Of a stretch of DNA of 64,000 nucleotides, positions 756 to 61,330 are shown one piece after another. Location: contig DYJA01000002.1 of assembly GCA_020723345.1 (NCBI GenBank), positions 137,544 to 201,543 of the forward strand, read 5' to 3'. The DNA comes from Candidatus Aquidulcis sp. GTDB lineage: Bacteria; Chloroflexota; Anaerolineae; UBA4142. Both the position numbers and the translations under genes were made by a program. Under the pieces are notes generated by a model that saw only the letters and a list, made by a program, of their open reading frames with translations, searched no databases and had not been told where the DNA came from. Numbering within the stretch: position 1 is the first letter of the stretch; each line of letters opens with the position of its first letter.

Positions 756-765
756 ATTTCCTCCG

Positions 766-1776: not shown

Positions 1777-1798
1777 GCATTTGCGGCGATGCTAGAAT
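1770..1798 (+). promoter_or_regulatory. Sigma-70-type promoter candidate for the response-regulator gene
   Basis: TTGACA (1770-1775), 17-nt spacer, TAGAAT (1793-1798); about 50 nt upstream of ATG 1851. Confidence 0.5.
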
Positions 1799-1850
1799 CG
1801 GCACACTGATTATACGGATTTGGCATCGTTGCGCTTGCCAAAAATTTGCC

Positions 1851-7082: not shown

Positions 7083-7098
7083 GCGAGGAGAAGATTCC

Positions 7099-8412: not shown

Positions 8413-8513
8413 TACGTGATGCGTGAGCGGAGTTTTTTGAATTACGAATTTCGAATTGCGAATTTTGAATTTGCGTAACCGCGCCATTCGTGCTAAAATA
8501 GCGTTTGTAAGAT

Positions 8514-8586
8514 GGTGGCCATAGCTCAATGGCAGAGCGTCTGACTGTGGATCAGAAGGCTGCGGGTTCGACACCCGTTGGCCACC
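8514..8586 (+). tRNA. tRNA-His (anticodon GTG)
   Basis: Cloverleaf folded by hand. Extra G-1 (8514) opposite discriminator C (8586), acceptor GTGGCCA/TGGCCAC, anticodon loop cTGTGga, T-arm GGGTTCGACACCC. No encoded CCA. Confidence 0.9.
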
Positions 8587-8593
8587 CTTTTCC

Positions 8594-8666
8594 AAAGGAT
8601 GAAGGCAGAAGGATGAAGGATGATCTTGATTATTTCATCCTTCCGCCTTCTGACTTCTGCCTTCGG
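8594..8666. repeat. Hairpin of tandem aaggatga/aggcaga motifs between the two tRNAs
   Basis: aaaggatgaaggcagaaggatgaaggatga ... ttcatccttccgccttctgacttctgccttcgg; the arms are reverse complements of each other. Confidence 0.75.
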
Positions 8667-8669
8667 TTT

Positions 8670-8742
8670 GCGCCTGTAGCTCAACGGATAGAGCATCAGT
8701 CTTCGGAACTGAGTGTTGGGGGTTCGAGTCCCTCCAGGCGCG
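8670..8742 (+). tRNA. tRNA-Arg (anticodon TCG)
   Basis: Acceptor GCGCCTG/CAGGCGC, D-arm tagctcaacggatagagc, anticodon stem tcagt/actga with loop cTTCGga, T-arm GGGGTTCGAGTCCC. Confidence 0.9.
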
Positions 8743-8744
8743 CT

Positions 8745-9008
8745 ATGGCACTCACGCTGAATCGCAAGCGCGCGTCCCGCGTTGCGAACATGACGACGAA
8801 AGAATTACAAACCCTGATCGAACGAACGGTGGATCGCCGTCTGGCTCACTGGGTGGGTAATTCTCGCATCGCGCGCCGCCGTCAAGAAATCGCGGCGAAC
8901 GCGGCAAAGACGCGGGCCGAGTATCGCGCAGGTAAAACCAAGCGCGGGACTAGCTTCGATTGGCTCGCCGAGGCGCGTCGCGTTCGCGCGCTCCCCTCAG
9001 ATGTCTGA
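8745..9008 (+). CDS. Small hypothetical protein (87 aa)
   Basis: Trimmed from ORF 8529-9008, whose 5' part runs across both tRNAs. Starts MALTLNRKRAS. No recognisable family. Confidence 0.4.
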   Translation: MALTLNRKRASRVANMTTKELQTLIERTVDRRLAHWVGNSRIARRRQEIAANAAKTRAEYRAGKTKRGTSFDWLAEARRVRALPSDV

Positions 9009-9116
9009 TTCCACACCGATTTTGCGCGCTCTGCGCGAAGGTTTACGGTCTTCATCAGACGACGAAGACACGCCCCTCTAAATCCGCACGTCTAATCCTG
9101 ATTTCCAGGAGGATTC

Positions 9117-9362
9117 ATGGAACTCTTGATTGTTGTGGTCGTTGCTGGCATGTTGATTGCGGTGTTATTCCTCGCGTGTGTTCTCCTGCTTTGGCTAGTG
9201 TTCACTTATCGTTCTCGCTCTCTTCAGGCGCGGAACGCATATGAAGAGCTATACCGCGCACGGTCACAAACTGCGTTTTTGTGTGACACCCGGATTCGAC
9301 GCTTTAGCGGTTTTTTTACTTGGGGGAAACCGCGTAAACGCTTGACTCCAAAAGCGCAATGA
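9117..9362 (+). CDS. Small membrane protein (81 aa, one TM helix)
   Basis: Strong RBS caggaggattcATG. MELLIVVVVAGMLIAVLFLACVLLLWLVF hydrophobic helix followed by a basic tail. Ends 7 nt before the next gene. Confidence 0.5.
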   Translation: MELLIVVVVAGMLIAVLFLACVLLLWLVFTYRSRSLQARNAYEELYRARSQTAFLCDTRIRRFSGFFTWGKPRKRLTPKAQ

Positions 9363-9368
9363 GTACCC

Positions 9369-10640
9369 GTGAGCAGTATATACGACTCGTTCAAGGACAT
9401 TATTGATCGAGACGCGGAGATTGCGAAGAGGAACCAAGAAGTCATTGAATTGCAGGCGAGACAGAGTAGTTTGCAATCCGCTTGCGATCAATCCAAGCAA
9501 ACGTTGGAAAGCCTCCAACGCGATGTTGCTCTCGCTGAAGAAAACCTTGAGCTACAATCCTTTGGTCTATACAAACCCCACTTTGATTTCGCGACTTCCG
9601 AATCTTTCAAAGTACGCCTGCAACGCGCTTGTGATGATCAGAAACGTATGGTCGCTGACGGGCGCGCCGTAATTTCTGAGAGACCATGGACGGTAAATGG
9701 TAGCGAACGCGAAGGCGAGCGGATGACGAAGCAATATGCGAAGCTCATGTTGCGCGCTTTTAATGGGGAATGCGACGCAACTGTTCTTAAAGTTCGTTGG
9801 AACAATGTCGTTGCAATGGAGGAGCGGATACGCAGAGCCTTTGAAGCCATCAACAAGTTAGGCACGACCTACTTTATCCGTATAACAAACGAATACCTCA
9901 ATTTGAAATTAGACGAACTACGACTGACGCACGAATATCAAGAGAAGTTATATCAAGAGAAGGAAGAGCAACGACGCATTCAAGAACAGATGCGGGAAGA
10001 AGAAAAGACACGGCAGGAAATTGAACGCGCTCAGCAGGAAGCAGAGGATGAAGAGCGACGTTACGCGAATGCATTGGAGCGAGCTCGCGCCGAACTGGAG
10101 AAAGCCAAAGGTGCGGAGGTCGGAAAGTTAAACGAAAAAATCACCCAATTGGAAGAACAGCTGAGATCTGCCCAGGAGATGAAGCAACGGGCAATCTCAA
10201 GAGCGCAATTGACCAAATCGGGACATGTCTACGTAATTTCTAACATCGGCTCCTTTGGCGAAAATGTCTTCAAGATTGGAATGACGCGCAGACTAGAGCC
10301 GATTGATCGGGTTCGAGAATTGGGCGACGCTTCAGTTCCATTTCCATTTGATGTTCATGCGATGATTTATTCCGAAGACGCTCCTGCACTCGAAAGTGAT
10401 TTGCAAAGTCACTTCAGGCAGTACCAAGTGAACTTGGTCAACGACCGTAAAGAGTTCTTCAATATCAATCTTGCGGAAATTGAAGAATATGCGCGCAAGC
10501 ATAGACTCAAGGTTACGATCACCCAGCTTGCCGAAGCTAAGGAGTACCGAGAATCAATGGCATTGAAGATACAAAATAAAACCAATGTTATGCCGCAACC
10601 GGCCTCGTCGTTTCAAAGTGCCATCCAATCGGTAAATTGA
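9369..10640 (+). CDS. DUF4041-type N-terminal region, coiled coil, and T5orf172/MUG113 (GIY-YIG-like) C-terminal domain protein
   Basis: LQSFGLYKPHFDF, KLMLRAFNGECD, EEQRRIQEQMREEEKTRQEIERAQQEAEDEE coiled coil, then GHVYVISNIGSFGENVFKIGMTRRLEPIDRVRELGDASVPFPFDVHAMIYSEDAPALE...NDRKEFF. GTG start. Region visibly AT-richer than its flanks. Confidence 0.8.
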   Translation: MSSIYDSFKDIIDRDAEIAKRNQEVIELQARQSSLQSACDQSKQTLESLQRDVALAEENLELQSFGLYKPHFDFATSESFKVRLQRACDDQKRMVADGRAVISERPWTVNGSEREGERMTKQYAKLMLRAFNGECDATVLKVRWNNVVAMEERIRRAFEAINKLGTTYFIRITNEYLNLKLDELRLTHEYQEKLYQEKEEQRRIQEQMREEEKTRQEIERAQQEAEDEERRYANALERARAELEKAKGAEVGKLNEKITQLEEQLRSAQEMKQRAISRAQLTKSGHVYVISNIGSFGENVFKIGMTRRLEPIDRVRELGDASVPFPFDVHAMIYSEDAPALESDLQSHFRQYQVNLVNDRKEFFNINLAEIEEYARKHRLKVTITQLAEAKEYRESMALKIQNKTNVMPQPASSFQSAIQSVN

Positions 10641-21517: not shown

Positions 21518-24500
21518 ACGCGATCTTTGGATCGGGTTGTTTTTCGTCGCGCTGTCCGCGCTTTTTTTTGCGCCGGTTGTCTTTGGCGGCGCGACGCTCA
21601 TTCCATTCGATAACCTCTTTCGTTTTCCGCCGTGGCGCATGTTCGCATTCCAGTTCGGCGTGACGACGCCGTACAACGAACTCGCGAGCGATCTCCTCCT
21701 CGAAAATTACGCGTGGAAACAATTCATCGTCGAGTCGCTGCGCGCGCAAGAAATTCCGCTCTGGAATCCGTACCTCTTTGGCGGCGTGCCGTTCCTCGCG
21801 GCGGGGCAGTCTTCCGCGCTCTATCCTTTCAATATTCTATTCTACCTTCTGCCTCTTGATCGCGCGTTTGGCATTTTCGTCGCGCTGCAACTCGCGCTCG
21901 CGGCGATTGCGATGTTTGCATTTATGCGCGTGCTCGGCGTCAGCCGCTTTGCCGCGACGATCAGCGCGATCACGTACGCGTTCAGCGCGTTCTTCTTCGT
22001 CAGCACGACATTTCCGATGGTGATCGCCGCGGCGGCGTGGCTGCCCGCGATTCTCGCCTGCGCCGAGTTGGTGATTCGCTCGAAGGATTCCGCGCGGCAA
22101 ATTTTCTGCGCGCTGCTCGGCGCGATTTTTCTCGGTATTCAATTTCTCGCGGGACACGTCGAGATTTCGATGTACGTGCTGATCGTCACCGCGTTTTATT
22201 CCGCGTGGCGCGGCGTCTCACTTGTCATTGCGAGGAGCGGAGCGACGAAGCAATCCCCAACTCACGAATTGGAGATTGCTTCGCAAAGACCGCTCGCAAT
22301 GACAGCGCGCGTCGCGTGGCGCGGCTGGTTTCTCATCGCGGCGATGACCGTCGTCGGGATCGCGCTCGCCGCGGTTCAACTGGTGCCGCTGTACGAACTC
22401 GTGCAGAATAATTTTCGCAGCGGCTCGGCGTCGTATCAGGACGTGATCGGTTGGGCGTACCCTCTCAAACAAATCATCACGTTTTTCATTCCCGATTTCT
22501 TTGGCAATCCCACACATCATTCGTACTTTGATATTTTCGATTTAACGCCGCGCGCCGCGCCGACCGGCACGATTTTCTGGGGCGTCAAGAACTACGTCGA
22601 GGCAGGATCGTACGTCGGCATCTTGCCGTTGCTGCTCGCGCTGATCGCAATCATCTCACGCATCACGCATCACGCATCACGTAACACGCAGAACGCTGCG
22701 GCGAGCGTTCCCTACGCATCTCTCAACTTCCCCATTGCTCTTTTCGCAACCCTCGCGATCATTTCGCTCTTGTTCACTTTCGGCACACCGCTGTACGCGA
22801 TTCTTTTCTTCGGCGTTCCTGGGTTCGATCAACTGCACACGCCCTTTCGTTGGGTCTTTCCATACACGCTGAGCGTGGCGGCACTGGCGGGGATTGGCGC
22901 GCAAGTTCTCAGTCAACAGTCAACAGTCAACAGTCAACAGTCGAACCGCGTCATACGTTTCACGTTTCACGTCTTACCTCTGCTTGCGCTTACGATTGGT
23001 ATTGTAGTTCTCTTTGCTCTCACGGCGTCCTGGCTTTTGCGCGATCAAACGCTCGTGTTGGCGGAGCGAATCCTGCGCGCGTCCAACACCGCGCAACTCG
23101 CGTTCGATAGTGGGCGAATGTTCTACTCGTACGAGTTTCGCAACGTCGCGCTCTTTGCGATTTTTCTTATCGGCGCAGGCATTGTTCTTCACGCAACACG
23201 CATCACGCATCCTTCGACTGCGCTGCGCTCCGCTCAGGACGCGTCGCGCACCCCGTTTCCGCTTTGGCAACTCCTCGCGCTCTTCGTCCTCGTCGCCGAT
23301 TTGTTCGTTATCGGCACGCAATTCTATCCGCGCGCGGATTCGCGCCTCGCCGAGTTCGTGCCGCCTGCCGTGAAATTTTTGCAGCAAGACAAATCGCTCT
23401 ATCGCATCACGAGTTACGACGCGTCGGGCGAAAAAATGTTCAACCCGAATGTCGGAATGTTCTATCACCTTTCCGACATTCGCGGCTATGATTCGATCAT
23501 CCCGAAACAGTACGCCGAATTGATGGGCGCGCTCGCGCCGCAGGGCGAATTGCTTTACAATCGCATCGCGCCGTTCTACAATCCCGATCCGCTCGATTCG
23601 CCGATCATCAATTTGCTCAACGTCAAGTACGTTTTGACGACGCGTCCGCTGCCGAACGCGGGGTACACGCTCGTGTACGACGACGAGATCAAAATCTATC
23701 GCAACGCGCGCGTGTTGCCGCGCGCGTTCATGGCTCCGCAGGCGCGCGTCATTTCTAACCGCGCTGCGCTGCTCGCGCAAATGAAAGAATTCGATCCGAC
23801 GCGCGAGGTGTTGCTGGATCAAGACCCAGAAATCGCGAGTCCGTCGTCGTGCGCGCTCAAGCCCGTGTCCATCGAAAAGTACGGCGGCAACGAAGTGATC
23901 GTCAAGAGCAAACAGGATTGCGCGGGCTGGCTCGTCCTGACTGATTCGTACTTCCCGGGCTGGCTCGCGCAGATTGACGGCGAAGATGCCGCGCTCTATC
24001 GCGCCAATTACAATTTCCGCGCGGTCTACGTTCCCACGGGCGAGCACACGATTCGATTCAAGTACAGCCCCGTCTCGTTCCGCGCAGGCGCGATTGGATC
24101 GTTCCTCGGCGCGATGGTGTTGCTGCTGGGATTCGCGTACCTCGCGTGGCGAAGATTTTATCGCGCCGATCAAGAATCGCAAGCGATCACCGTCGCCAAG
24201 AATTCGATCTTGCCGATGGCAACGTCGCTGCTGATGAAGTTGATCGATCTCGCCATGGCGATGTTCATGTTGCGCGTTTTGGGTCCCGTTGGCACGGGTC
24301 GGTACGGTTGGGCGGTCACTGTTTGGTTGCTCGCCAACGCGATCACCGATTTCGGTTTGGGCATTCTCGTCACGCGCGAAGTTTCGCGCGACCGCGCGCA
24401 GGCGAATCGTTATTTGACGAACACCGCGATTTTGCGGTTTCTGTTGTGGGCGGCATCGTTGCTGCCCGTCGCCGCGCTTGCCGCGATTTATTTTGCGTTC

Positions 24501-37390: not shown

Positions 37391-38662
37391 GTGTACGCCA
37401 CGTCTCAAGAATTAGAACTATCGGCGATCTACGCGAGCGATCCGGAAATCGCGGCGGTGATCGAGCGCGAACGCACGCGACAAAAAGAAGGATTGGAACT
37501 GATCGCTTCCGAAAACTACGCGAGCCGCGCGGTGTTGGAAGCAGTCGGTTCGGTGCTGACGAACAAGTACGCCGAAGGTTATCCGGCGAAACGCTATTAC
37601 AACGGCTGCGGCTTCGTTGATCAAGCCGAAACGCTCGCGATTGAACGCGCCAAGCAACTGTTCGGCGCGCCGCACGCGAACGTACAGCCGCATTCCGGAT
37701 CGCAAGCGAATATGGGCGCGTACTTTGCGCTGATTCAGCCCGGCGACACCGTGCTCGCGATGAGTCTCGCGCAGGGCGGACATCTCACGCACGGCGCGCC
37801 GGTGAACTTGTCGGGACAACTTTACAACTTTGTCGGCTACGGTGTGAACAGGGAAACCGAGATGCTCGACTATGCCGAGATCGCGCGGCTCGCCGAACAA
37901 CATCGTCCGAAACTGATCGTCGCGGGCGCGACCGCGTATCCGCGCGTAATTGATTTTGCAAAACTGCGCGAGATTGCAAATCACGTCGGCGCGAAATTGA
38001 TGGCGGACATCGCGCACATCGCTGGACTGGTTGCCGCCGGAGTTCATTCCAGCCCGGTGCCGGTCGCCGATGTTGTGACAACGACCACGCACAAAACGTT
38101 GCGCGGTCCGCGCGGCGGCATGATTCTCTGCACTGTGGAATACGCCAAGGCAATCGACAAAGCAATCTTCCCAGGAATGCAAGGCGGTCCGCTCGAACAT
38201 GTGATCGCCGGGAAAGCGGTCGCGTTACGAGAAGCGCAGCAACCGTCGTTCGTCGCGTATCAAAAGCAAGTACGCGCGAACGCGCGCGCGTTGGGCGCGC
38301 AACTGCAAGCGCGCGGCTTGCGGATCGTCTCCGGCGGGACGGACAACCATTTGATCCTGGTAGACTTGACATCCAAGGGCGTGACTGGCAAAGACGCGGC
38401 GAACGCGCTGGAGAGCGTCGGGATCACGTGCAACAAGAATCTGGTGCCGTTCGATCCACTTCCGCCGAAAGTGACGAGCGGCATTCGACTGGGCACGCCG
38501 GCGTTAACGACGCGCGGCATGAACGAAAACGATTTGTGCCAGGTCGCCGATTGGATCGCCGATGTGGTTTCCGATTTGAGTGACACGGCGCGGCACGAAC
38601 GCGTGCGAAAAGCAGTTGTTCAATTCGCCACGCGCTTTCCGATGCCGGGAGTAGATTCATAG
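37391..38662 (+). CDS. glyA: Serine hydroxymethyltransferase (canonical)
   Basis: [44 protein letters not shown] start. Confidence 0.95.
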
Positions 38663-38668
38663 AATTCG

Positions 38669-38706
38669 GTATCCAGTGTTCAGTATTCAGTCTGAACACT
38701 GGATAC
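38669..38706. repeat. Hairpin gtatccagtgttcag-tattcagt-ctgaacactggatac
   Basis: Perfect 15-bp stem directly after glyA. Probably also acts as a terminator or attenuator. Confidence 0.7.
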
Positions 38707-38743
38707 TGAATATTGAAAACTGTTTTCCGAACACGAGGATTTT

Positions 38744-40105
38744 ATGACCCATCGTTTCATTCCCAACACCGATGCCGATCGCGCTGCAATGCTACAGACG
38801 ATCGGCGTTGCGTCGGCGAAAGACTTGTTCGCGGACGTGCCGCAGGACGCGCTCTATCCAAAAATCAAACTGCCGAGCGCGTTATCCGAACTTGACTTGA
38901 TGCGCGAACTGCAAACGATGTCGGCGCGCAACGCGAACGTCAACGAACGCGCGTGTTTTCTCGGCGCGGGCGCGTACAACCATTTCATTCCCGCGACGAT
39001 TCCGCATCTCGTTTTCCGCAGCGAGTTTTACACCGCGTACACGCCGTACCAAGCCGAAATCAGCCAGGGCACGCTGCAAACGATTTTCGAGTACCAGTCG
39101 ATGATCTGCGCGCTGACCGGCATGGACGCGGCGAATGCGTCGCACTATGATGGCGCGACGGCGGCGGCGGAAGCCGCGATCCTCGCGATCAATCAATTGC
39201 CCGGACGAAACAAGATTCTCGTGTGTCCGACTTTGCACCCGGAATATCGCGCGACGATTCGCACGTACCTCGCCGGGCACGATATTGAAATTGTCGGCGA
39301 CGAAGACACAAGCGCGACGTTCGAGCAAATGGTGGACAAACATCTCGACGATCGGACCGCGTGCGTGATCGTCGCAAATCCCGACTTTTTGGGACGCGTG
39401 CGCGACTTGAAGCCGTACGCGGATCGCGTGCACGCGGCAGGCGCGCTTTTCGTCGTCAGCGCGTACCCGATTTCGCTTGGCTTGTACCAAGCGCCGGGAA
39501 ATTATGGCGCGGATGTCGTCGTCGGCGAAGGACAATCGCTTGGCAATCCAATCGCGTTCGGTGGACCGTACCTGGGAATTTTCGCGACGAAAGAAAAATT
39601 CTTGCGGCGCATGGCGGGACGCTTGGTCGGACAAGCGACGGACACGAAGGGGCGGCGCGGTTTCACGCTGACGTTGCAGGCGCGCGAGCAGCACATCCGC
39701 CGCGAAAAAGCGACGTCGAATATTTGCACGAATCAGGCGCTATGCGCGCTCGCTGCGTGCGTGTATCTTTCGACGCTCGGCAAGTCGGGCTTGCGCCAAG
39801 TCGCCGAGTTGTGCTATCACAAAGCGCACTACGCCGCGAACAAGATCAATCGGCTCGTTGGCTATCGCGTGAATATGAAGCAAGAATTCTTCAACGAGTT
39901 TGTCGTCGAGTGCCCGCGCCCGGTCGCGGAGATCAACGCGGCGTTGCGCGAGCGAGGAATTATTGGCGGATACGATCTATCGAAAGATTATCCGCATCTT
40001 GGGAATGCGATGTTGGTTGCGGTAACAGAGATGAACACGCGAGAACAAATTGACGCGTTTGCAAAAGCGTTGGGAGAAGAGATAAGAAGGCGGAAGAAGG
40101 GATAA
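38744..40105 (+). CDS. gcvPA: Glycine dehydrogenase (decarboxylating) subunit 1
   Basis: 453 aa. FLGAGAYNH, YTPYQAEISQGTLQ, SHYDGATA. The final codons RRRKKG-stop lie inside the following repeat. Confidence 0.95.
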   Translation: MTHRFIPNTDADRAAMLQTIGVASAKDLFADVPQDALYPKIKLPSALSELDLMRELQTMSARNANVNERACFLGAGAYNHFIPATIPHLVFRSEFYTAYTPYQAEISQGTLQTIFEYQSMICALTGMDAANASHYDGATAAAEAAILAINQLPGRNKILVCPTLHPEYRATIRTYLAGHDIEIVGDEDTSATFEQMVDKHLDDRTACVIVANPDFLGRVRDLKPYADRVHAAGALFVVSAYPISLGLYQAPGNYGADVVVGEGQSLGNPIAFGGPYLGIFATKEKFLRRMAGRLVGQATDTKGRRGFTLTLQAREQHIRREKATSNICTNQALCALAACVYLSTLGKSGLRQVAELCYHKAHYAANKINRLVGYRVNMKQEFFNEFVVECPRPVAEINAALRERGIIGGYDLSKDYPHLGNAMLVAVTEMNTREQIDAFAKALGEEIRRRKKG

Positions 40106-46263: not shown

Positions 46264-46326
46264 TCCACGAAGGACACGAAGGGACACGAAGAATTTTTCC
46301 TTCGTGATCTTCGTGCCCTTCGTGGA
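46264..46326. repeat. Hairpin of cacgaagg units
   Basis: tccacgaaggacacgaagggacacgaag-aattttt-ccttcgtgatcttcgtgcccttcgtgga. Same unit family as 49003-49066. Confidence 0.8.
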
Positions 46327-48378: not shown

Positions 48379-48488
48379 CGCAAGAAACGCAAGGGACACA
48401 GATGAACGCAGATGAACACAGATCAAACTAGAAATCATTGTTCTTGTTTTCTTCGTGTTCATCGCGCCTTTCGTGGACAGAGTTCTTA

Positions 48489-48947: not shown

Positions 48948-49084
48948 GGGCGAAACATTCGCCAAATCCTGTTGGTGGGCAATAGACTTGCGGGAATAAT
49001 TTGTCCACGAAGGACACGAAGGAGCACCAAGTTTTTTCTTCGTGTTTCTTCGTGCTCTTGGTGGACGAATGTTTTGCCCTTACA
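48945..49084. repeat. Composite element: GTAGGGGCGAAACATTCGCC...CGAATGTTTTGCCCTTAC with a nested cacgaagg hairpin
   Basis: Outer inverted repeat plus inner hairpin gtccacgaaggacacgaaggagcaccaag-ttttttc-ttcgtgtttcttcgtgctcttggtggac (49003-49066). Confidence 0.8.
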
Positions 49085-49157: not shown

Positions 49158-51917
49158 GTGAATGATTCCCCAAATCCGCACGTCCCAGATTGTCCCTACG
49201 TCGGCTTGCAACCATACTCCGAAGCCGAACGCGAATACTTTTTCGGTCGCGAGCAAGACACCGAAACGATTGCCGCGAACTTGCTCACCGCGCCGCTGAC
49301 GTTGCTTTACGGCGCGAGCGGCGTCGGCAAAACGTCCGTGCTTGCGGCAGGCGTTGTGCCGTACTTGCGCGCGATGCCTGATGTACTTGTTGTTTTGTTT
49401 CGGCAGTGGCAGGACAGCACGTTTCAAGATGTGCTGATGAACGACGTTGATACAACGGTCTACTACTCAAGAGCCAAACTGCTGAGTAATAGGACACCGC
49501 TTCCGTTCGACGAATTCCTCGCGCGCGCGGCGCAAGAAACCAACCGCACGCTCCTCATCATCCTTGATCAGTTTGAAGAGTATTTTCTCTATCACCCTAA
49601 CGGAAATCCGTTCGAGGAGCAACTCGCGCGTGCGATCAATAGGGGCGACGTGAACGCAAATTTCATTCTCTCCATGCGCGAGGACGCGCTCTCACAACTC
49701 GACCGCTTTGAAACACGGATTCCCAACTTGATGAGCAACTATTTGCGCTTGGAGCATTTGGACCGCGCTGGTGCAGGGCGCGCGATTCGCAAGCCGCTGG
49801 ATGTGTACAACGCGCGCCGAACTGACGCGTCCCCGATAACGATCGAAGACGCGCTGGTGGATGCGTTGATTGAGCAAGTTCGCACGGGACGCGTGACGCT
49901 GGGGCGCGCAGGGCAAGGCGAAATTGCCGTAATGCAATCCGCCGACACGCGCGATACGCGCATTGAGGCGCCCTTTCTGCAAATGGTCTTGACTCGTCTC
50001 TGGGAGGAAGAAACTCGTGCCGGCGCGCGCAACCTTAGACTTGCAACCTTGAACCTCCTTGGTGGCGCTGAAAAAATCGTGCGAACGCATCTGGACGAAG
50101 TAATGAACAGATTGCGCGCGCCGGAGCAAGAAGTTTGCTCCACCTTCTTCGACCGATTGGTCACGCCGTCGGGCACCAAGATCGCGCAGAACGCCGACGA
50201 CCTGGTGACGTATGCTGCGCGTTCCGCTGCTCAAGTCACTCCCATTCTCAAGAAACTTGCCGACGCGCGCGTCCTGCGTCCGATTGCGCCGCCGCTGAAT
50301 CAGCCCCAGGTCGCGCGCTATGAGATTTTTCACGATGTGATTGCGCCTGCGATTCTGGATTGGCGCAGACGTTTCGTTGATCGCAAGCGCGTTCGTCGCT
50401 TGGGATTGATTACGCTGGGGGCTGTTTTGCTCGTGGTGGTGTTCAGTTTGTTGTCGCTCTTTGCGTTCCAGCAAATGTTGAATGCGCAGGATGCCGAGGG
50501 GCGCGCGATTGTTCAACGCAACGCAGCGGCTACTTCGGAAGCGCGTGCGGTAACGCAGGAAGCGAGCGCATACCAGCAACGCGCCGAAGCGCAGAATCAG
50601 GCAAACGCGCGGGCTACGGCGGAAGCGCAGGCATTGGTTCAACGTGATGCGGCAGAGAAATCCAAGGGTGAAGCGCTCACTCAACAAAAGATCGCCTTTT
50701 CGCGTGAATTGGCGGGGATAGCGCTCGCGCGATTGCCTGTTGACCCAGAACAAAGTCTGCTCTTGGCTCTCCATGCCGCCGAGATTTCTCCGACTGAACA
50801 GGCAGAGGACGCCTTGCGCCAATCATTGCGCGGGTATGCTTTGCGTGCTGCATTGCGCGGGCACACTGCTAGTGTGTATGCTGGATTCAGCCCGGACGGC
50901 AAATTCATCGTCACGGCAAGTCTAGACAATACGGCGCGTGTGTGGGAGACGAGCACAGGCAAGAGTATCGTTGAACTGCGTGGGCACACCGGTCAGGTGC
51001 GAAGCGCCCAATTTAGTCCCGACGGCAAATTCATTGTCACGGCGAGTCAAGATGGAACCGCGCGGGTTTGGGAGGCGAGTACCGGTAAAAGTATCGCCGA
51101 ACTGCGTGGACATACTGCGACCGTGCGCCATGCCGTGTTCAGCCCGGATGGCAAGTTCGTCGTCACAGGAAGCAATGACTACACAGCGCGCATTTGGGAA
51201 GCCAGCACAGGCAAGAACATCCGGGAACTGCGTTGGCACGGGAGTTCTTTGAGCGGCGTGGCATACAGTCCCGACGGCAAATCTATTGTTACGGTGAGCT
51301 CAGGCGCGGGCGCGCGGATTTGGGAAGCGAGTACAGGCAGAGGTATCTCGGAACTACGCGGGCACACGAAATCCATAAATAGCGTCGCGTTTAGTCCCGA
51401 CGGCAAATTTATTGTCACCGCGAGTTCGGACAATACGGCGCGCGTGTGGGAAACAAGCACAGGCAGGAATATTGCGGAATTGCAGGGGCACACGGATGTC
51501 GTACGAAGCGCGACATTCAGTCCTGATGGCATGTTCGTCGTCACTGGCAGTTCGGATAACACAGCGCACGTGTGGGAGGCAAGCACAGGCAAGAGTATTA
51601 TGGAATTGCGCGGACATACGGGGTACGTGACTATTGCCGCATTTAGTCCGGATGGCAAGTTCATCGTGACAGTCAGTAGAGATGGAACCGCGCGGGTGTG
51701 GGAGGCAAGCACAGGGAGAGGCATCGCGGAACTACGCGGACACACCACTGAAATCAATAGTGTTGAATTCAGTCCCGATAGTAAATTCATTCTCACCGGG
51801 AGCGCTGATTTTACCGCGCGGCTATGGGAGGCGAATAGCCGCGACAGTATTATAGTATTCCTTCGCAGAAACTATCACGACCGCGAAGATTCTTGGGACA
51901 CAGATGAACACAGATAA
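49158..51917 (+). CDS. STAND-like P-loop NTPase, single TM helix, Ala/Gln-rich coiled coil and 8 WD40 repeats
   Basis: CPYVGLQPYSEAEREYFFGREQD, Walker A YGASGVGKTSVLAAGVVPYL, Walker B LLIILDQFEEYF, ILSMREDALSQLD. RRRFVDRKRVRR then TM LGLITLGAVLLVVVFSLLSLFAF. Eight LRGHT...FSPDGK...TARVWE units. The ORF terminates inside a hairpin repeat. Confidence 0.85.
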   Translation: MNDSPNPHVPDCPYVGLQPYSEAEREYFFGREQDTETIAANLLTAPLTLLYGASGVGKTSVLAAGVVPYLRAMPDVLVVLFRQWQDSTFQDVLMNDVDTTVYYSRAKLLSNRTPLPFDEFLARAAQETNRTLLIILDQFEEYFLYHPNGNPFEEQLARAINRGDVNANFILSMREDALSQLDRFETRIPNLMSNYLRLEHLDRAGAGRAIRKPLDVYNARRTDASPITIEDALVDALIEQVRTGRVTLGRAGQGEIAVMQSADTRDTRIEAPFLQMVLTRLWEEETRAGARNLRLATLNLLGGAEKIVRTHLDEVMNRLRAPEQEVCSTFFDRLVTPSGTKIAQNADDLVTYAARSAAQVTPILKKLADARVLRPIAPPLNQPQVARYEIFHDVIAPAILDWRRRFVDRKRVRRLGLITLGAVLLVVVFSLLSLFAFQQMLNAQDAEGRAIVQRNAAATSEARAVTQEASAYQQRAEAQNQANARATAEAQALVQRDAAEKSKGEALTQQKIAFSRELAGIALARLPVDPEQSLLLALHAAEISPTEQAEDALRQSLRGYALRAALRGHTASVYAGFSPDGKFIVTASLDNTARVWETSTGKSIVELRGHTGQVRSAQFSPDGKFIVTASQDGTARVWEASTGKSIAELRGHTATVRHAVFSPDGKFVVTGSNDYTARIWEASTGKNIRELRWHGSSLSGVAYSPDGKSIVTVSSGAGARIWEASTGRGISELRGHTKSINSVAFSPDGKFIVTASSDNTARVWETSTGRNIAELQGHTDVVRSATFSPDGMFVVTGSSDNTAHVWEASTGKSIMELRGHTGYVTIAAFSPDGKFIVTVSRDGTARVWEASTGRGIAELRGHTTEINSVEFSPDSKFILTGSADFTARLWEANSRDSIIVFLRRNYHDREDSWDTDEHR

Positions 51918-52850
51918 ACACAGATAGAAAAATCAGTGTTCATCAGTGTTTATCAGTGTCCAAAAGATTTGGTTGCGGCTATGCTGCGCTATGGATCTGC
52001 GCGGACATACAAGTAAGATCCGGAGCATCGTGTTCAGCCCAGATGGAAAATCTCTCGTGACCGCAAGCGAGGACAACACCGCCCGAGTATGGGAAGCAAG
52101 CACAGGCGCGAGTATCCTTGTATTGAGTGGGCATAAGGGTTTCTTGCGGAGTGTTGCCTACAGTCCCGAGGGCAAGTTCATCGTCACCGCGAGTGGAGAT
52201 TCGATAGCGCGGGTGTGGGAGGCGAGTACAGGTAAGAGTATCCTGGAACTGCGCGGACACACAAAAGATGTTCGCAGCGCCGCGTATAGCCCCGATGGCA
52301 AGTTCATCGTCACCGCAAGCATAGATGGGAGTGCGCGCGTGTGGGAGGCAGGCACAGGTAAGGGAATCATGGAATTGCGGGGGCACGGTATCCATAGCGT
52401 CCTCAACGCCGCGTTCAGTCCGGATGGCAAGCGCATCGTCACGGCGGGCTGGGATGGCATCGCGAAGGTGTGGGAGACAAGTACAGGCAAGAGCACAATC
52501 GAATTGCGCGGACATACACTAGGTTTATACAGCGCCACATTCAGTCCGGATGGCAAGTTGATTGTTACTACCAGTGTGGACGGAACTGTACGGATATGGG
52601 AAGCCAGCACAGGCAAGAGCGTCATCGAATTGCACGCGCACGCAGGTGATTCGCACAGCGCCGCATTCAGTCCTGATGGGAAATATGTCGTCACTGTAGG
52701 TTTGGACGGAAACGCGAGGGTATGGGAGACTAGCACCGGCAAACACATCGTCGAAATATCTGAGGCGACTGCCATATTCAGCGCCGTCTTCCATCCCGAA
52801 GGCAAGTTAATCGCGACTGCAAGTAGCGATGGCGTTGCGCGCATTTACGT
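50853..52850 (+). repeat. Tandem 126-bp (42-codon) WD40 coding repeats, 15-16 units across two ORFs
   Basis: Units LRGHTxxVxSxxFSPDGKFIVTASxDxTARVWEASTGKSIxE are highly similar at the DNA level. Differences cluster just after GHT and around S-x-D-x-T. Confidence 0.85.
51896..51961. repeat. Hairpin of cacagat units interrupting the WD40 array
   Basis: ggacacagatgaacacagataaacacagatag-aaaaa-tcagtgttcatcagtgtttatcagtgtcc. Near-identical core to 57152-57218. Confidence 0.85.
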
Positions 52851-53028
52851 CTGTGAGGTGTGTGCTCCATTCCAAGACCTTATCGCGCTTGCACGCACGC
52901 GCATCACGCGCGAGTTCATGTGCGAAGAGCGGCAAAGGTATTTGCACGAAAATATTGTCTGCTCAACGCCAACGCCAATCCTAACTCAAACTCCAGAGCC
53001 CCCGCAGACAATAACGCCTGGTAGGTGA
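51946..53028 (+). CDS. WD40-repeat protein (7 repeats), probably the detached C-terminal part of the preceding gene
   Basis: The first ATG lies inside the hairpin. The recognisable sequence starts DLRGHTSKIRSIVFSPDGK. No signal peptide or TM. An alternative start is ATG 51991. Confidence 0.7.
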   Translation: MFISVQKIWLRLCCAMDLRGHTSKIRSIVFSPDGKSLVTASEDNTARVWEASTGASILVLSGHKGFLRSVAYSPEGKFIVTASGDSIARVWEASTGKSILELRGHTKDVRSAAYSPDGKFIVTASIDGSARVWEAGTGKGIMELRGHGIHSVLNAAFSPDGKRIVTAGWDGIAKVWETSTGKSTIELRGHTLGLYSATFSPDGKLIVTTSVDGTVRIWEASTGKSVIELHAHAGDSHSAAFSPDGKYVVTVGLDGNARVWETSTGKHIVEISEATAIFSAVFHPEGKLIATASSDGVARIYVCEVCAPFQDLIALARTRITREFMCEERQRYLHENIVCSTPTPILTQTPEPPQTITPGR

Positions 53029-53032
53029 TCTT

Positions 53033-53980
53033 ATGCCCGAACCACCTTATGGTATCATTGTCAACCAATTGAAACAAGGGAACGTCATTCCCTTCCTCGG
53101 CGCGGGCGCGTCGTTGAGCGGACGTCCGGTGGACGCGAAATGGAACGACAAGACCGCCGCGTTTCTTCCAACCGGCAGAGAACTCGCGCACCAACTCGCC
53201 GAGGATTCCAGTTTGCCGTCCACAGAATCGTACGACCGCGATGATCTCTCCAAAGTTTCGTCGTACTACGCCGAAGTCGCCGCAAACCGCGCCGACTTGA
53301 TCGGCTGTCTGCATCAAACGCTTGACCGCGATTATCAGATCGGCGCGATCCACCGTTTTCTCGCAGACGCCGACGTGCCGCTTCTCATCGTCACGACGAA
53401 TTACGATGATCTGATCGAGCGCGCGTTTCAGGCAAAGGGTAAACCGTACCATCTCGTCGCGTATCCCACCGATCACAAAGAACTCGCGGCAGCGGTATTG
53501 TGGTGGAAGCCCGGCGCAGCCGACCCCGAAGCGCACGCGCCCAAATCGCTTCCGCTCTCGCTCAGCGATACGACCATCATCTACAAGATGCACGGCACGG
53601 TGGATCGGCAAGCGAACAAGTGGGATTCGTACGTCATCACCGAAGAAGACTATGTGGACTTTCTCGCGCGGATGACGGGGCAGACCGCGATCCCCGCGCG
53701 CTTGATGCTCGAATTTCGCAAGCGGCGTTTTCTCTTTCTCGGCTACGGTCTGCGCGATTGGAACCTGCGCGTGATGCTGCGTCACCTCAAAAGCGCACTC
53801 GCCACAACCGAAACGACCGCGCCGCTAACCGATGCGGGCGAGGATTTGCGCTCGTGGGCGATCCAGCGCAATCCATCGGAGTTGGAACGCGCGCTGTGGC
53901 TTGCGCGCAAGGTGAACATTTACGATCTGGAGATTGACGCGTTCGTCGGCAAGTTGCGCGAGAAGATGGGCATTGCGTAG
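53033..53980 (+). CDS. SIR2-like (SIR2_2-type) protein, paralogue of 43997-44878
   Basis: VIPFLGAGASLSG, LLIVTTNYDDLIERAF, IIYKMHGT, YVITEEDYVDFL, RFLFLGYGLRDWNLRVMLRHL. Starts 4 nt after the WD40 stop. Confidence 0.85.
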   Translation: MPEPPYGIIVNQLKQGNVIPFLGAGASLSGRPVDAKWNDKTAAFLPTGRELAHQLAEDSSLPSTESYDRDDLSKVSSYYAEVAANRADLIGCLHQTLDRDYQIGAIHRFLADADVPLLIVTTNYDDLIERAFQAKGKPYHLVAYPTDHKELAAAVLWWKPGAADPEAHAPKSLPLSLSDTTIIYKMHGTVDRQANKWDSYVITEEDYVDFLARMTGQTAIPARLMLEFRKRRFLFLGYGLRDWNLRVMLRHLKSALATTETTAPLTDAGEDLRSWAIQRNPSELERALWLARKVNIYDLEIDAFVGKLREKMGIA

Positions 53981-54079
53981 GGGCGAAGCATTTGCCAAAT
54001 CGTGATCGCATGCCAAGACGATTGGCATAATGCAAACAACTTGCCGACAAACCGTCTTGCGCAAATGCTTCGCCCTTAC
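53978..54079. repeat. GTAGGGGCGAAGCATTTGCC...GCAAATGCTTCGCCCTTAC element
   Basis: Same termini and same orientation as 48945-49084. Its TAG is the stop codon of the SIR2-like gene. Confidence 0.8.
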
Positions 54080-54096
54080 GCGGCACGGGGCAGCGT

Positions 54097-54125
54097 TTGA
54101 CCAATCCCCCAACCTGTGCTATAAA
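54097..54125 (+). promoter_or_regulatory. Promoter candidate for the aspS leader
   Basis: TTGACC, 17-nt spacer, TATAAA. Confidence 0.5.
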
Positions 54126-54131
54126 CCACGC

Positions 54132-54452
54132 AACGCAGTGACGGAGAAACGTAGCGCTTGACGAGATTCCAGAGAGCCGTACAATTCTGAAAAGCCGGCA
54201 TCCACGCAAGCGTGATGAACATCTCCCGAGCGTTTCGGTCCGCTCCCGTTATCGAGCGTCGAGGCGACAACCCGCCGAATGTAATTCGGCGTCTCAAAAT
54301 CTGAAAATCGGCTAGAAGCCGATTGCGCGCCAACCCGATTGATCGGGGTTCCACCTTTTGAGACGGACGATTGCATCGTCCGTTGTCGCGCAGAAAGGTG
54401 GCACACGAGTCCCCCCTCGTCCTTTCATCGGACGCGGGGGAATTTTATTTCA
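54132..54452 (+). promoter_or_regulatory. Probable T-box leader (tRNA-sensing riboswitch) of aspS
   Basis: AGAGAG bulge-like motif near the 5' end and several stem-loops. T-box-like gaaaGGTGGCACacgag (54394-54410), where gaaa/tttc and acgag/ctcgt can form an antiterminator with a UGGC-containing bulge. Competing terminator tcccccctcgtcc-tttcatc-ggacgcggggga followed by attttattt. Specifier codon not identified. Confidence 0.5.
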
Positions 54453-54547
54453 GGCGATCAGGCGACCACGTAATCCGGCGATCAGGCAATCGGGCGATCG
54501 GCAACCGATTGACCGATTGCCTGATTGACCGATCCCTGATTGCCTGC
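54452..54547. repeat. Tandem-motif palindrome (caggcgatc / gattgcctg units) between the leader terminator and the aspS start
   Basis: caggcgatcaggcgaccacgtaatccggcgatcaggcaatcgggcgatcggcaa / ccgattgaccgattgcctgattgaccgatccctgattgcctg. Confidence 0.75.
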
Positions 54548-54560
54548 CGAAGGAGCCACT

Positions 54561-55862
54561 ATGGAACGAATTCGCACAACGCAATTGCGCGAACACATCG
54601 GTCAGCGCGTCATTTTGCGCGGCTGGATGCACAACCTGCGCGCGCTCGGCAAGATCAGTTTCATTCTCGTGCGCGACGGCTACGGCATCGCGCAAGCGGT
54701 TACCCAAGACGAAAACGTGCTTGCCGCGCTCCACGGCGCGCACGACGAAAGCGTCATCGAACTCGAAGGCGCGGTCGTCGCGGAAGCGCAAGCGCCGGGC
54801 GGCGTCGAATTGCGCGACATCGCGGTGCGCGTCATCGCGCCGGTCACCGACACGCCCCCGTTTCCGCTCAACAAGCCGACCGTCAACGCGACGCTCGACG
54901 TTTTTCTCGATCATTCGACGGTCGCGCTGCGTCATCCGCGCAAGCGCGCGCTGCTGCGACTTTCCGCCGGGATCATGTCGGCGTTTCGCGAATTTCTCAA
55001 CGGCGACGGATTCACCGAAATCCAATCGCCCAAACTTGTCGCGTCGGCGACCGAAAGCGGCGCGAATGTGTTCGCGGTCGATTACTTTGGCAAAAAGGCG
55101 TTTCTCGCGCAGTCGCCGCAGTTCTACAAGCAAATTATGGTCGGCGTGTTCGAGCGCGTGTACGAAGTCGGTCCCGTCTTCCGCGCCGAGCCGCACGACA
55201 CGACGCGCCACGTCAACGAGTACGTCAGTCTCGACGTCGAATTTGGTTTCATCGAGAATCACTTTACGGTGATGGCGTTGCTCACGCGCTTGATTCGACA
55301 CATTCTCGCGCGGCTCGCGGAACAAAACGCGGCAGCGTTGCAATTGCTCGATGTGAAAATGCCGAACGCGCCTGAAACTTTCCCACACATTCACTTTCGC
55401 GACGCGCAGCAACTCATCTTTGAGAAATTCGGCGAGGATTGCCGCGGCGAACCCGATCTCGCGCCGCAGCACGAACGCTGGCTCGGACAGTGGGCGCGTG
55501 AAACGCACAACTCCGATTTTCTATTCGTGCCCGGCTATCCGATGAGCAAGCGACCGTTTTACACGCACCCCGATCCCGCGGATCCAAAATATTCGTACTC
55601 GTTCGACTTGCTGTTTCGCGGCACCGAACTTGTGACCGGCGGACAGCGGCTGCATCGGTACGAAGATTATCTTGCCGCGCTCGCGCGCGCGAAATATCCG
55701 GTCGAGCCGTTCGCGTACTATCTCGACGCGATGAAGTACGGGATGCCGCCGCACGGCGGCTTCGCCGTCGGCTTGGAACGTTTTGTGATGCAGTTGTGCG
55801 GCTTGTCGAATTTGCGCGAAGCGACCTTGTTCCCGCGCGATACGCACCGCCTCACCCCATAA
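54561..55862 (+). CDS. aspS: Aspartate--tRNA ligase, short (archaeal/type-2) form
   Basis: About 433 aa. GWMHNLRALGKISFILVRDGYG, FLAQSPQFYKQ, VGPVFRAEPHDTTRHVNEY, GGQRLHRYE, GMPPHGGFAVGLERF. AAGGAG RBS before MERIRT. Confidence 0.95.
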   Translation: MERIRTTQLREHIGQRVILRGWMHNLRALGKISFILVRDGYGIAQAVTQDENVLAALHGAHDESVIELEGAVVAEAQAPGGVELRDIAVRVIAPVTDTPPFPLNKPTVNATLDVFLDHSTVALRHPRKRALLRLSAGIMSAFREFLNGDGFTEIQSPKLVASATESGANVFAVDYFGKKAFLAQSPQFYKQIMVGVFERVYEVGPVFRAEPHDTTRHVNEYVSLDVEFGFIENHFTVMALLTRLIRHILARLAEQNAAALQLLDVKMPNAPETFPHIHFRDAQQLIFEKFGEDCRGEPDLAPQHERWLGQWARETHNSDFLFVPGYPMSKRPFYTHPDPADPKYSYSFDLLFRGTELVTGGQRLHRYEDYLAALARAKYPVEPFAYYLDAMKYGMPPHGGFAVGLERFVMQLCGLSNLREATLFPRDTHRLTP

Positions 55863-55895
55863 AAAATTAGGAGCGAGCAACTGCTCGCTCCTTTC

Positions 55896-57110
55896 TCATT
55901 CCCACTTGCGCTCGTCCACGATTGGCTTGGCGTCCGCCGCAATCGTCCCTGCTGGCGCGAATTCGATCTGGTCCACGCTCACGCGAATCAACCCGCGCAC
56001 CGCTTCGGAAAATTCCTGGCTTAATTTCGCGCGATCGGGCACGTCCTGCGCGAGTTCGACTTTGAGCGTCAAATGGTCGCGCACATTGTCCGGACGCGTG
56101 ACGATGCCCTGCACGCGCGCGATCGCCGGAAACTGCGCGAGCGCGAACTTGATCTGATTCGGATGAACGAACATCCCGCGCACTTTGACCGCGTCGCCGA
56201 CGCGCCCGACGAGCATGATGCGCTCGCGCGTCTCGTCGGTACACACTGCCATATCGCCGGTGCCGAGGCGAATGAGGGGGTACGTTTCGTTGAACGTCGT
56301 GACGACGACTTCGCCTGGCTCGCGCGCGCCGACGCGTTTGCCGGTCGCGGGGTCGACAATTTCGACGACGATGCCCTCCGCGATTTGCAGCGCGCGCTTG
56401 GTTTCATCGTCGTACGCGAGAAAGCCGAGTTCCGCCGTTGCGTATACGTTCGTCGTCTTTAATCCGTACACACCTTCGAATTGCGCGCGTAGCGAGGGCG
56501 GATATGGCTCGGCGGTGAAAAGCGTGTGGCGCAGCGCGAATTGCTTTTTGAAATCGAGGCGCATCTCCTCCGCTTTTTTGATGATCGTCATCAAAAAACT
56601 TGGCGTGCCCGCATAGCCGGTCACTTTGAGATCGAGCATCATCTTGATTTGCAATTCGGTGTTGCCGACGCCGCTGGGGATGACGGTCGCGCCGACTGCT
56701 TGCAATCCGGCGTCGAGCAGCAAGCCCGCCGGGACGAGGTGGTACGACAGCGTGTTGAGCGCGATGTCGCCGCGCGTGAAACCCGCGATGCGAAAAATGC
56801 GCGCCGCCGTTCTGACGAGCGATTTCTCCGCGCCGTGTGGTTCGTACAGCGGACCCGGCGAAAGAAAAATATGCTTGAGCCGTTTCGCCTTTTCGCTGCG
56901 AAACCCGCCGAACGGCGGCGCGGCTTTTTGCAGTTCGACGAGGCGATCCTTGCTCGTCACCGGCACGCGTTCCAAATCCGCGACGCGTCGAATGTCGCGC
57001 GGTTTCACGCCCGCGTCGTCGAAAATCCTTTTGACGGCGGGCGCGCTCGCGTACGCGTGTTTGACGAATTTGGCAAGTTCCCGATCGAGCGAGTTAGGTT
57101 GGGTGGGCAT
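55896..57110 (-). CDS. Phenylacetate-CoA ligase family (PaaK / F390-synthetase-like) adenylating enzyme
   Basis: 404 aa. VPVTSKDRLVE, YAGTPSFLM, TAELGFLAY, RLGTGD. Confidence 0.85.
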   Translation of the reverse strand: MPTQPNSLDRELAKFVKHAYASAPAVKRIFDDAGVKPRDIRRVADLERVPVTSKDRLVELQKAAPPFGGFRSEKAKRLKHIFLSPGPLYEPHGAEKSLVRTAARIFRIAGFTRGDIALNTLSYHLVPAGLLLDAGLQAVGATVIPSGVGNTELQIKMMLDLKVTGYAGTPSFLMTIIKKAEEMRLDFKKQFALRHTLFTAEPYPPSLRAQFEGVYGLKTTNVYATAELGFLAYDDETKRALQIAEGIVVEIVDPATGKRVGAREPGEVVVTTFNETYPLIRLGTGDMAVCTDETRERIMLVGRVGDAVKVRGMFVHPNQIKFALAQFPAIARVQGIVTRPDNVRDHLTLKVELAQDVPDRAKLSQEFSEAVRGLIRVSVDQIEFAPAGTIAADAKPIVDERKWE

Positions 57111-57151
57111 AGATCACTCCTTGAAGACAAGTCAAATAGAAATCGGATAAT

Positions 57152-57218
57152 GGGACACCGATGTACACAGATAAACACAGATAGAAAAATCAGTGTGCAT
57201 CAGTGTTTATCCGTGTCC
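57152..57218. repeat. Hairpin of cacagat units (second copy)
   Basis: gggacaccgatgtacacagataaacacagatag-aaaaa-tcagtgtgcatcagtgtttatccgtgtcc. Contains the stop and last 3 codons of gene 57207-57770. Confidence 0.85.
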
Positions 57219-61261: not shown

Positions 61262-61330
61262 CAACCCTCGATGCGTGTTGCGTGATGCGTGAAACGTGAA
61301 TATTCACGCATCACGTTTCACGTTTCAGAT
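61262..61330. repeat. Tandem-motif element (gcgtgat / cgtttca units)
   Basis: gcgtgttgcgtgatgcgtgaaacgtgaatattcacgcatcacgtttcacgtttcag. The same units recur at 8410-8430 and inside CDS 22657-22978. Confidence 0.7.

Follow-up and report, generated by a model that had tools for sequence, protein, structure and literature searches.

A small hairpin-bearing mobile element very probably interrupts an nSTAND1 NTPase-WD40 gene in Candidatus Aquidulcis

In a 64,000-nucleotide stretch of contig DYJA01000002.1 from Candidatus Aquidulcis sp. (Chloroflexota), hereafter the window, two consecutive open reading frames (ORFs), ORF1 and ORF2, very probably represent a single gene for a nucleoside triphosphatase (NTPase) with one transmembrane (TM) helix and 15 WD40 units, which was interrupted at a TATG site by a small non-autonomous mobile element. 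A preliminary description of this DNA had proposed that an originally single polypeptide was split here by a hairpin-bearing repeat, and that proposal is borne out by the comparisons below: the gene is split, an intact orthologue exists, the ends of the element can be placed, and the element is present in several copies in unrelated surroundings. The sequence marks the insert as a small non-autonomous mobile element: it has a central hairpin, its arms are unrelated to each other, and terminal inverted repeats are lacking. The coordinates of all features are collected in Table 1.

Table 1. Positions of the interrupted gene, the inserted element and related features in the window
Feature	Positions	Strand	Size and content	Basis
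ORF1	49158-51917	+	919 amino acids (aa): nSTAND1 NTPase, one TM helix, linker, WD40 units 1-8, 21 element-encoded residues IVFLRRNYHDREDSWDTDEHR, stop	
Native WD40 units 1-8	50844-51853	+		SPDG anchors; alignment with other element copies
Inserted element core	51854-51989	+	136 bp; 138 bp in the consensus that the other copies give	Alignment with sharp ends
Left arm	51854-51894	+	41 nt, AGTATTCCTTCGCAGAAACTATCACGACCGCGAAGATTCTT; no relationship to either the right arm or WD40 DNA	
Central hairpin	51895-51962		68 nt; arms of three 10-nt units ACACAGATNA, 6-nt loop	
Right arm	51963-51989	+	27 nt (consensus 31 nt); holds the 9-mer at 51975-51983	
ORF2	51991-53028	+	345 aa from the first in-frame ATG; WD40 units 9-15 and conserved C-terminal tail	
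SIR2_2 gene	53033-53980	+	Begins 4 nt past the ORF2 stop	PF13289, E=2.6e-27
Hairpin-only copy	57151-57218		94% identical to 51894-51961 over 68 nt; intergenic between two minus-strand genes	
Degenerate hairpin-only copy	48393-48460		Between DUF6713 and GNAT genes	

That ORF1 and ORF2 are pieces of one nSTAND1 NTPase/TM/15xWD40 gene is strongly supported, because the orthologue is a single ORF, a tail is shared with it, the register matches, and the WD40 units are alike across the break. The orthologous contigs were found via a cluster-mate (at least 90% identity) of the SIR2_2 protein encoded directly downstream in the window. In both of these assemblies the locus is one uninterrupted ORF rather than two genes (L001, positions 6325-9996, 1223 aa; L002, positions 175-3894, 1239 aa), and a SIR2_2 gene lies directly 3' of it, as in the window. 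The AspRS gene follows further downstream in L001, whose contig extends further than that of L002, again as in the window. Nucleotide identity between the window and the orthologous locus is 77-78% in the NTPase part, 86% in the tail plus SIR2 and 89% in AspRS. The interval between SIR2 and AspRS is occupied by HicA/HicB and DUF2442/DUF4160 cassettes in the related lineage (L001 10948-12691); the corresponding interval of the window (53980-54540) is without those cassettes and consists of about 560 nt with a periodic hairpin.

The orthologue contains 15 WD40 units, the same number as the eight of ORF1 and the seven of ORF2 taken together, and it ends in ...ARIY..RIEDLIAVAQTRVTRELTCEERQKYLRENIVC...TPGR (in fuller reading, ...ARIYLTRIEDLIAVAQTRVTRELTCEERQKYLRENIVC...TPGR), to which the end of ORF2 corresponds with ...ARIY..DLIALARTRITREFMCEERQRYLHENIVC...TPGR (in fuller reading, ...ARIYVCEVCAPFQDLIALARTRITREFMCEERQRYLHENIVC...TPGR). 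In the complete-looking family members examined (P0002, P0003, P0041, P0083, P0098, P0099 and P0048), the last WD40 unit is followed by a related tail, which takes the form ...ARIY/F-x4-6-DLIxLARxRxxRxLTxxExxKYL in the closest of them; this tail is absent from ORF1 and present in ORF2. When 139 bp are taken out, the reconstructed window gene encodes 1243 aa with 15 units, and its SPDG anchors fall at 577...871 and 913...1165, compared with 579...872 and 913...1165 in the orthologue. Identity between WD40 units is 57.8% across the break, 59.9% within ORF1 and 55.9% within ORF2, while window units and orthologue units share 48.3% identity (49.1% at the same position). Furthermore, on both sides of the break the lineage signature WE after the tryptophan position is found in 14 of 14 units, whereas the orthologue has WD in 12 of 14. 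The WD40 units have been homogenised per lineage (window 50844-52900; L002 1900-3700), with 56-60% identity within an array and 48-49% between lineages. The unit number of 15 is conserved between the window and the orthologue; the more distant family members examined have fewer, approximately 2-10 units.

The ends of the inserted sequence were obtained from a scan of metagenome contigs with a 20-mer comprising the loop plus part of an arm, which proved decisive. It returned five contigs (L128-L132) from three samples and three genomic contexts, and these carry the whole intervening stretch, beyond the hairpin alone. In the alignment of the window with these copies, similarity sets in at TATAGTATTCC and is lost after ...CGCTATG, so that the boundaries read TAT/AGTATTCC...CGC/TAT-G, with flanking TAT triplets at 51851-51853 and 51990-51992. 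The unit is laid out as TAT/AGTATTCCTCCGCAGAAACTATCACGACCGCGAAGATTCTT - hairpin - AAAGGGTTTGGTTGTGGCTGGAAGCCACGC/TAT-G, or in outline AGTATTCCTCCGCAGAAAC...GGCTGGAAGCCACGC. Between 51851 and 51993/51994 the window is 94% identical to the copy in L131/L132 and 86% identical to that in L129/L130. The right arm of the other copies contains a small hairpin, GTGGCTGGAAGCCAC (GTGGCT-GGA-AGCCAC), whose version in the window, GCGGCTATGCTGCGC, is degenerate. The flanks of the large hairpin (51852-51894 and 51963-51990) have no similarity to the DNA of the WD40 array, the left one scoring below the shuffle mean. The last native codons before the element are GAC AGT ATT (Ile898, 51849-51851), and excision of the core together with one TAT (139 bp) yields GAC AGT ATT ATG GAT CTG, corresponding to the protein sequence ...TARLWEANSRDSIMDLRGHT... 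and to a predicted empty-allele junction ...GACAGTATTATGGATCTG.... Unit 8 then measures exactly 42 aa, in the same register as in the orthologue.

The preliminary description had placed the boundaries differently, at a 9-mer, GCGGCTATG, which indeed is present twice (51818-51826 and 51975-51983), is read cgg-cta-tg in both ORFs, and can be used for a 157-bp deletion that keeps the frame. According to this explanation, a 148-bp insert is bounded by a 9-bp duplication, and the deletion restores ...TARLCCAMDLRGHT.... However, the 9-mer is no better than chance as a sign of duplication: the best match of the right flank to the WD40 array is the 9-mer itself, and 92 of 300 shuffles equal or exceed its score; in addition, dozens of 9-mers of the 139-nt insert recur exactly in other parts of the window. 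The second 9-mer, moreover, falls within the right arm of the mobile element, whose extent is set by the three other copies; it is part of the degenerate small hairpin there. The 157-bp deletion also discards the native WEANSRDSI codons and leaves a unit of 36 aa, whereas excision of 139 bp gives 42 aa and the register of the orthologue. The decayed WD40 repeat that had been suspected between the 9-mers finds no support beyond this native ...WEANSRDSI. The explanation by a 9-bp duplication is therefore scarcely credible.

Together with the window, the five contigs provide four independent contexts for the element (window, L128, L129/L130 and L131/L132). It is regarded as a repeated mobile unit because it has sharp shared ends in three unrelated contexts elsewhere. 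After excision all four sites read N-TAT-G, and an apparent TATG target is common to all. In L131/L132 (L132 6479-7323), the copy is situated where a DUF5678 gene and a gene for a retropepsin-like aspartyl protease would otherwise overlap by 8 nt; the DUF5678 gene is two residues shorter as a result, and the ATG of the retropepsin-like gene is kept at the right junction. The copy in L128 (2960-3200) has an FdrA-like gene on one side and an AllG-domain gene on the other, and abuts the first ATG of the latter. It matches the window over the left part, and its hairpin 3' arm contains a nested 32-nt insertion with inverted repeats of its own (3010-3045). The copy in L129/L130 (L130 1470-2120), which has one 10-nt unit fewer in the hairpin 5' arm (L129 about 240-250), is flanked by two small genes, of which the downstream one matches HEPN weakly and below threshold. 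Here an unrelated upstream ORF enters the element in the frame of ORF1 and gains the same 21-aa tail, IVFLRRNYHDREDSWDTDKHR followed by a stop. As an aside, the window and L128 also have a different repeat of 75 nt in common, 85% identical (window 22220-22290; L128 3893-3967), which lies inside the FdrA-like ORF in L128 and whose window copy includes an inverted repeat (22246-22283).

Several observations weigh against an interruption by this element. No full second copy was found within the 64-kb window, no empty-site allele of the source species was found, and no parent transposon or transposase was identified in the window or the element-bearing contigs. An excision of 142 bp is also in frame and leaves a 41-aa unit like unit 8 of the orthologue, meaning that it is the other copies that fix the precise ends; 139 bp is preferred because a 142-bp excision would delete the ATG that is the first start codon downstream in L128 and L131/L132. 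In addition, the left junction is seen solely in the window's own assembly, and ORF2 is fully intact and predicted to form a closed 7-bladed propeller. A search of metagenome contigs for an empty or filled allele with the native left-flank 21-mer gave 0 matches, and the left-arm pattern had 0 matches in viral contigs. Protein searches with the reconstructed junction plus ORF2 gave generic WD40 proteins (best identity 55%) with no same-species allele, and those with the last unit plus the tail gave just 3 candidates, none of which scored.

The lone left junction also raises the question of an assembly artefact or a minority variant, in which case the gene would be intact and the contig would have been joined through the repeated hairpin or would stem from a subpopulation. 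Hairpins of this kind do break assemblies, as is seen in a contig from the Logan collection (L007), which begins 4 nt past the hairpin of the element and ends inside the copy at 57151-57218. This contig, an independent assembly, is 100% identical to window 51966-57194; therefore the right arm joined to ORF2 exists in another assembly. Both arms belong to one element family that is intact elsewhere, and both flanks belong to the same gene, meet in the same codon and are in frame after excision. A chimera would need two element copies at matching in-frame positions, and an artefact is considered very improbable. The interruption of one gene by the element remains the preferred reading.

The interrupted gene has the domain content of a putative defence protein. 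In ORF1, the nSTAND1 domain (PF20703) covers aa 13-395 with E=1.1e-44 (154 bits vs a curated cut-off of 27.1), and WD40 (PF00400) is matched with E=3.4e-88 in ORF1 and 2.4e-70 in ORF2. The hydrophobicity profile of ORF1 has a single strong segment at approximately aa 413-441, with eight K/R within the 14 residues just N-terminal to it, and a low-complexity linker separates this TM segment from the WD40 array. The distribution of charge around the helix predicts that the array is located outside the cytoplasm. Each of the eight units in ORF1 is 42 aa long (an SPDG anchor every 42 aa), and the C-terminus reads ...TARLWEANSRDSI-IVFLRRNYHDREDSWDTDEHR. After ATG 51991, ORF2 reads MDLRGHTSKIRSIVFSPDGK..., continues through its seven units and closes with the tail. 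No exact match to the ORF1 protein is on record, and the ORF2 protein from the ATG is likewise absent from the searched collection; the nearest named homologues are divided between Acidobacteriota and Chloroflexota. The SIR2_2 protein matches Thoeris ThsA SIR2-type models (E=3.5e-20) and is likely the effector partner of the NTPase gene, the same adjacent pair being present at the orthologous loci. Kaur et al. 2021 (PMC8195603) defined nSTAND1 proteins as NTPases of conflict systems, and the host gene resembles them in that the nSTAND1 domain is followed by a repeat-array sensor and is paired with SIR2_2. However, the pair differs from described nSTAND1/ThsA systems in that no PADLOC system model was matched by it as a whole, with mad8 at E=1e-4 only. 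Judged by its domain content, the interrupted unit is plausibly a defence module.

The hairpin at the centre of the element folds with -35.5 kcal/mol (z = -6.8 vs shuffles). Because its unit is 10 nt long (1 mod 3), stops and GTG codons occur in all three frames (51905-51927 and 51936-51958, respectively): the 5' arm holds TGA 51905, TAA 51915 and TAG 51925, the 3' arm GTG 51936, 51946 and 51956, and therefore ORF extensions such as MFISVQ... arise in every context. As described previously, ORF1 ends in ...WDTDEHR inside the hairpin, with its stop (TAA 51915-51917) in the 5' arm. The start of ORF2 inside the hairpin, which had been given as an ATG, is in fact GTG 51946, where the ORF finder places it in the 3' arm. 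The motif CACAGATNAACACAGAT occurs 9 times in the window, compared with 0.01 expected. A search for further copies of the hairpin, with inspection of their flanks for duplications, was suggested in the preliminary description; such copies exist at 57151-57218 and 48393-48460, and flanking duplications are absent at both. At 57151-57218 the arms of the element are also absent, similarity beyond the hairpin being rejected with p = 0.52 and 0.75, and the mobile unit is larger than the 66-bp hairpin. A role as an intrinsic terminator was rejected, there being no T-run after the hairpin on either strand and 0 terminators in a scan for them. No Rfam family was matched at gathering score, with sub-threshold generic hairpin matches to miRNA precursor models alone, and the exact loop pattern had 0 matches in representative-genome contigs (source species not included).

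Two side observations concern the surroundings of the hairpin. On the minus strand of the left junction (51849-51878), a perfect TATAAT with GTGATA 18 nt upstream constitutes a 10/12 promoter match directed antisense into ORF1; it is probably fortuitous, and other copies have different junction bases. The window also contains other hairpins whose arms consist of tandem short units (8592-8666, 38652-38744, 46266-46315, 48995-49060, 54473-54533 and 61274-61327), with arm units GAAGGAT/GAAGGCA, CAGTATT, CACGAAGG, CGATCRG and GCGTGAW. One of these periodic-arm hairpins is located between two tRNA genes (8515-8586 and 8670-8742), another just upstream of AspRS, and the genome seems rich in them.

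Hairpins of the same build are found well beyond this genome. A scan for two adjacent units among 185,579 species representatives gave at least 120 stretches (L008-L127). Among the 120 matches listed, three or more units follow one another at exactly 10 nt in an arm of 89, and 52 have paired arms, 4-149 nt apart; arms of exactly three units outnumber those of four by 148 to 4. The arms of this class consist of three 10-nt units, CACAGATNNA, ending AAC/GGA...GTT/TCC, and the hosts among the matches listed belong to Acidobacteriota, Planctomycetota, Chloroflexota, Cyanobacteriota, Proteobacteria, Verrucomicrobiota, Gemmatimonadota, NC10, Abditibacteriota, Bacteroidota and Firmicutes, in addition to a Methanosarcinaceae archaeon. 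No paper with the 17-mers of the hairpin class was found among those searched and no Rfam family was found for it, and the class is apparently undescribed. It might be speculated that the CACAGAT-type hairpin, with three 10-nt units per arm, is an undescribed cross-phylum module that is mobile or protein-bound, that the 138-bp element is one vehicle of it, and that its insertions act as stop-and-restart cassettes, an idea that comes from the 10-nt period, by which all three frames can be closed by stops in the first arm and given GTG starts in the second. If true, insertions would split genes or sit at start codons as translation stop-and-restart cassettes rather than simply destroying genes. 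This larger proposal is considered improbable. The three-frame stop was rejected as a general property of the class, since it is enriched, not conserved (26% of the 160 arms listed vs 3.5% of shuffles).

For the window itself, the following course is proposed. Originally, an nSTAND1 NTPase, a TM helix, 15 WD40 units and the tail would have been encoded by a single gene, which formed an operon-like pair with the SIR2-like gene. The element would have landed at a TATG among the codons Ser-Ile-Met-Asp, in the part of WD40 unit 8 that encodes its last strand, either with a 3-bp (or TA) target duplication or by target-specific insertion without duplication. Translation from the original start would now run 21 codons into the element and halt at the TAA in the hairpin 5' arm, giving an NTPase/TM/8xWD40 product that lacks seven units and the C-terminal tail, and the remaining seven units and tail would be left as a second ORF. 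No Shine-Dalgarno-like sequence was found upstream of ORF2, before either 51946 or 51991. The earlier observation that ORF2 has neither signal nor anchor was confirmed: there is no hydrophobic segment in ORF2, unlike in ORF1, whose one TM-like segment has positive-inside charge. Production of the ORF2 protein is probably poor, and any that arises would end up on the wrong side of the membrane. Most likely, the sensor is inactivated, because ORF2 is without a ribosome-binding site, signal or anchor.

It has also been considered whether the split is tolerated or even used, with a stop at TAA 51915 and re-initiation at GTG 51946 or ATG 51991, so that both proteins would be made and SIR2 would still be expressed. 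ORF2 is open over 345 codons and is modelled by AlphaFold as a closed propeller of seven four-stranded blades (predicted local distance difference test score, pLDDT, 83), while the C-terminus of ORF1 is modelled as 32 strands in eight four-stranded blades (pLDDT 74), in which the element-encoded IVF completes the last strand. The stops in three frames in the 5' arm and the GTG codons in three frames in the 3' arm would suit such a role, as would the right junction of the element in L128 and L131/L132, which forms the start codon of the downstream gene. On the other hand, neither possible start of ORF2 has a Shine-Dalgarno-like sequence, and the stem buries GTG 51946; signal and anchor are missing from ORF2, whereas the array of ORF1 follows a TM helix with positive-inside charge; three-frame stops are found in only about a quarter of the arms from other genomes; and among the homologues examined, none is naturally split at this point. 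A tolerated split is thus unlikely, and loss of the sensor by insertion is preferred.

Small repeat elements are already known to disrupt genes (PMC3184786). Bacterial MITEs (miniature inverted-repeat transposable elements) inactivate genes by insertion and are classically defined by terminal inverted repeats and a target duplication (PMC3184786, Delihas 2011). The element shares with them its small size (about 140 bp), the absence of coding capacity, its multiple copies, a long hairpin and a mostly intergenic location, and like them it truncates a protein and adds element-encoded residues. With a core of 136-138 bp it is too short for a transposase gene and well under the size of about 400 bp that applies to MITEs, and its dispersed copies have sharp shared ends (TATAG at the start and GCTATG at the end, in four contexts). 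It differs from MITEs in that its arms are unrelated, its TAT flanks are invariant, no related insertion sequence was found and terminal inverted repeats are lacking, and the classical definition is not fitted because there are no inverted termini. Terminal or subterminal inverted repeats were sought and rejected: the left arm against the reverse-complemented right arm scores 10, compared with a shuffle mean of 11.9, ungapped terminal matches amount to 5-8 of 20 positions, and the ends share at most ATAG/CTAT. TAT at both ends and G after the right TAT are invariant in all four copies, so that a duplication is indistinguishable from element or target sequence; the TAT flanks may be a 3-bp (or TA) duplication at a TATG target, or one TAT may belong to the element.

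Comparison with two other groups of small elements gives a similarly mixed picture. Miniature elements derived from IS200/IS605 have asymmetric ends with similar subterminal hairpins at both, and insert 3' of a fixed short motif without duplication. The element described here is likewise asymmetric, with a fixed TAT before its left end and possibly no duplication, and it has a small hairpin, GTGGCT-GGA-AGCCAC, near its right end, which in the consensus is separated from the right TAT by 2 nt. It differs in the large central hairpin, and a left-end hairpin was not seen in folds. No Y1 transposase or TnpB was found near the element in the window and L128-L132, a small sample. A link to IS200 via L037 was rejected: an IS200-like gene there is about 390 nt from a hairpin, but that hairpin is outside the insertion sequence. 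Repetitive extragenic palindromic (REP) elements and REPINs are described as mobilised by REP-associated tyrosine transposases (RAYTs) in PMC3116915 and PMC3733652, and the definition of the REP superfamily given in the latter includes a GTAG or CGTC tag. Like them, the element has two inverted arms that form a hairpin, a mainly intergenic location and no terminal inverted repeats at the unit ends. However, it has three 10-nt tandem units per arm as well as non-palindromic arms of 41 nt and 31 nt, and inspection found no GTAG/CGTC tag at the ends of the hairpin or of the element on either strand. A tblastn search with IS200, IS608 and E. coli RAYT queries gave no match in either the window or L128-L132, a small genome sample.

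For annotation, this means that 49158-51917 and 51991-53028 should be treated as one interrupted gene, and that hairpins of this type can break assemblies and create spurious ORF extensions (MFISVQ... and ...DTDEHR). Since ORF2 is undamaged, the element must have inserted recently, or else the fragment continues to be used. For the organism, the strain is probably without a working copy of the STAND-NTPase/SIR2 module. For the biology of mobile elements, the copies constitute an apparently undescribed small family whose ends are sharp but atypical, whose termini are not inverted, and whose target appears to be TATG.

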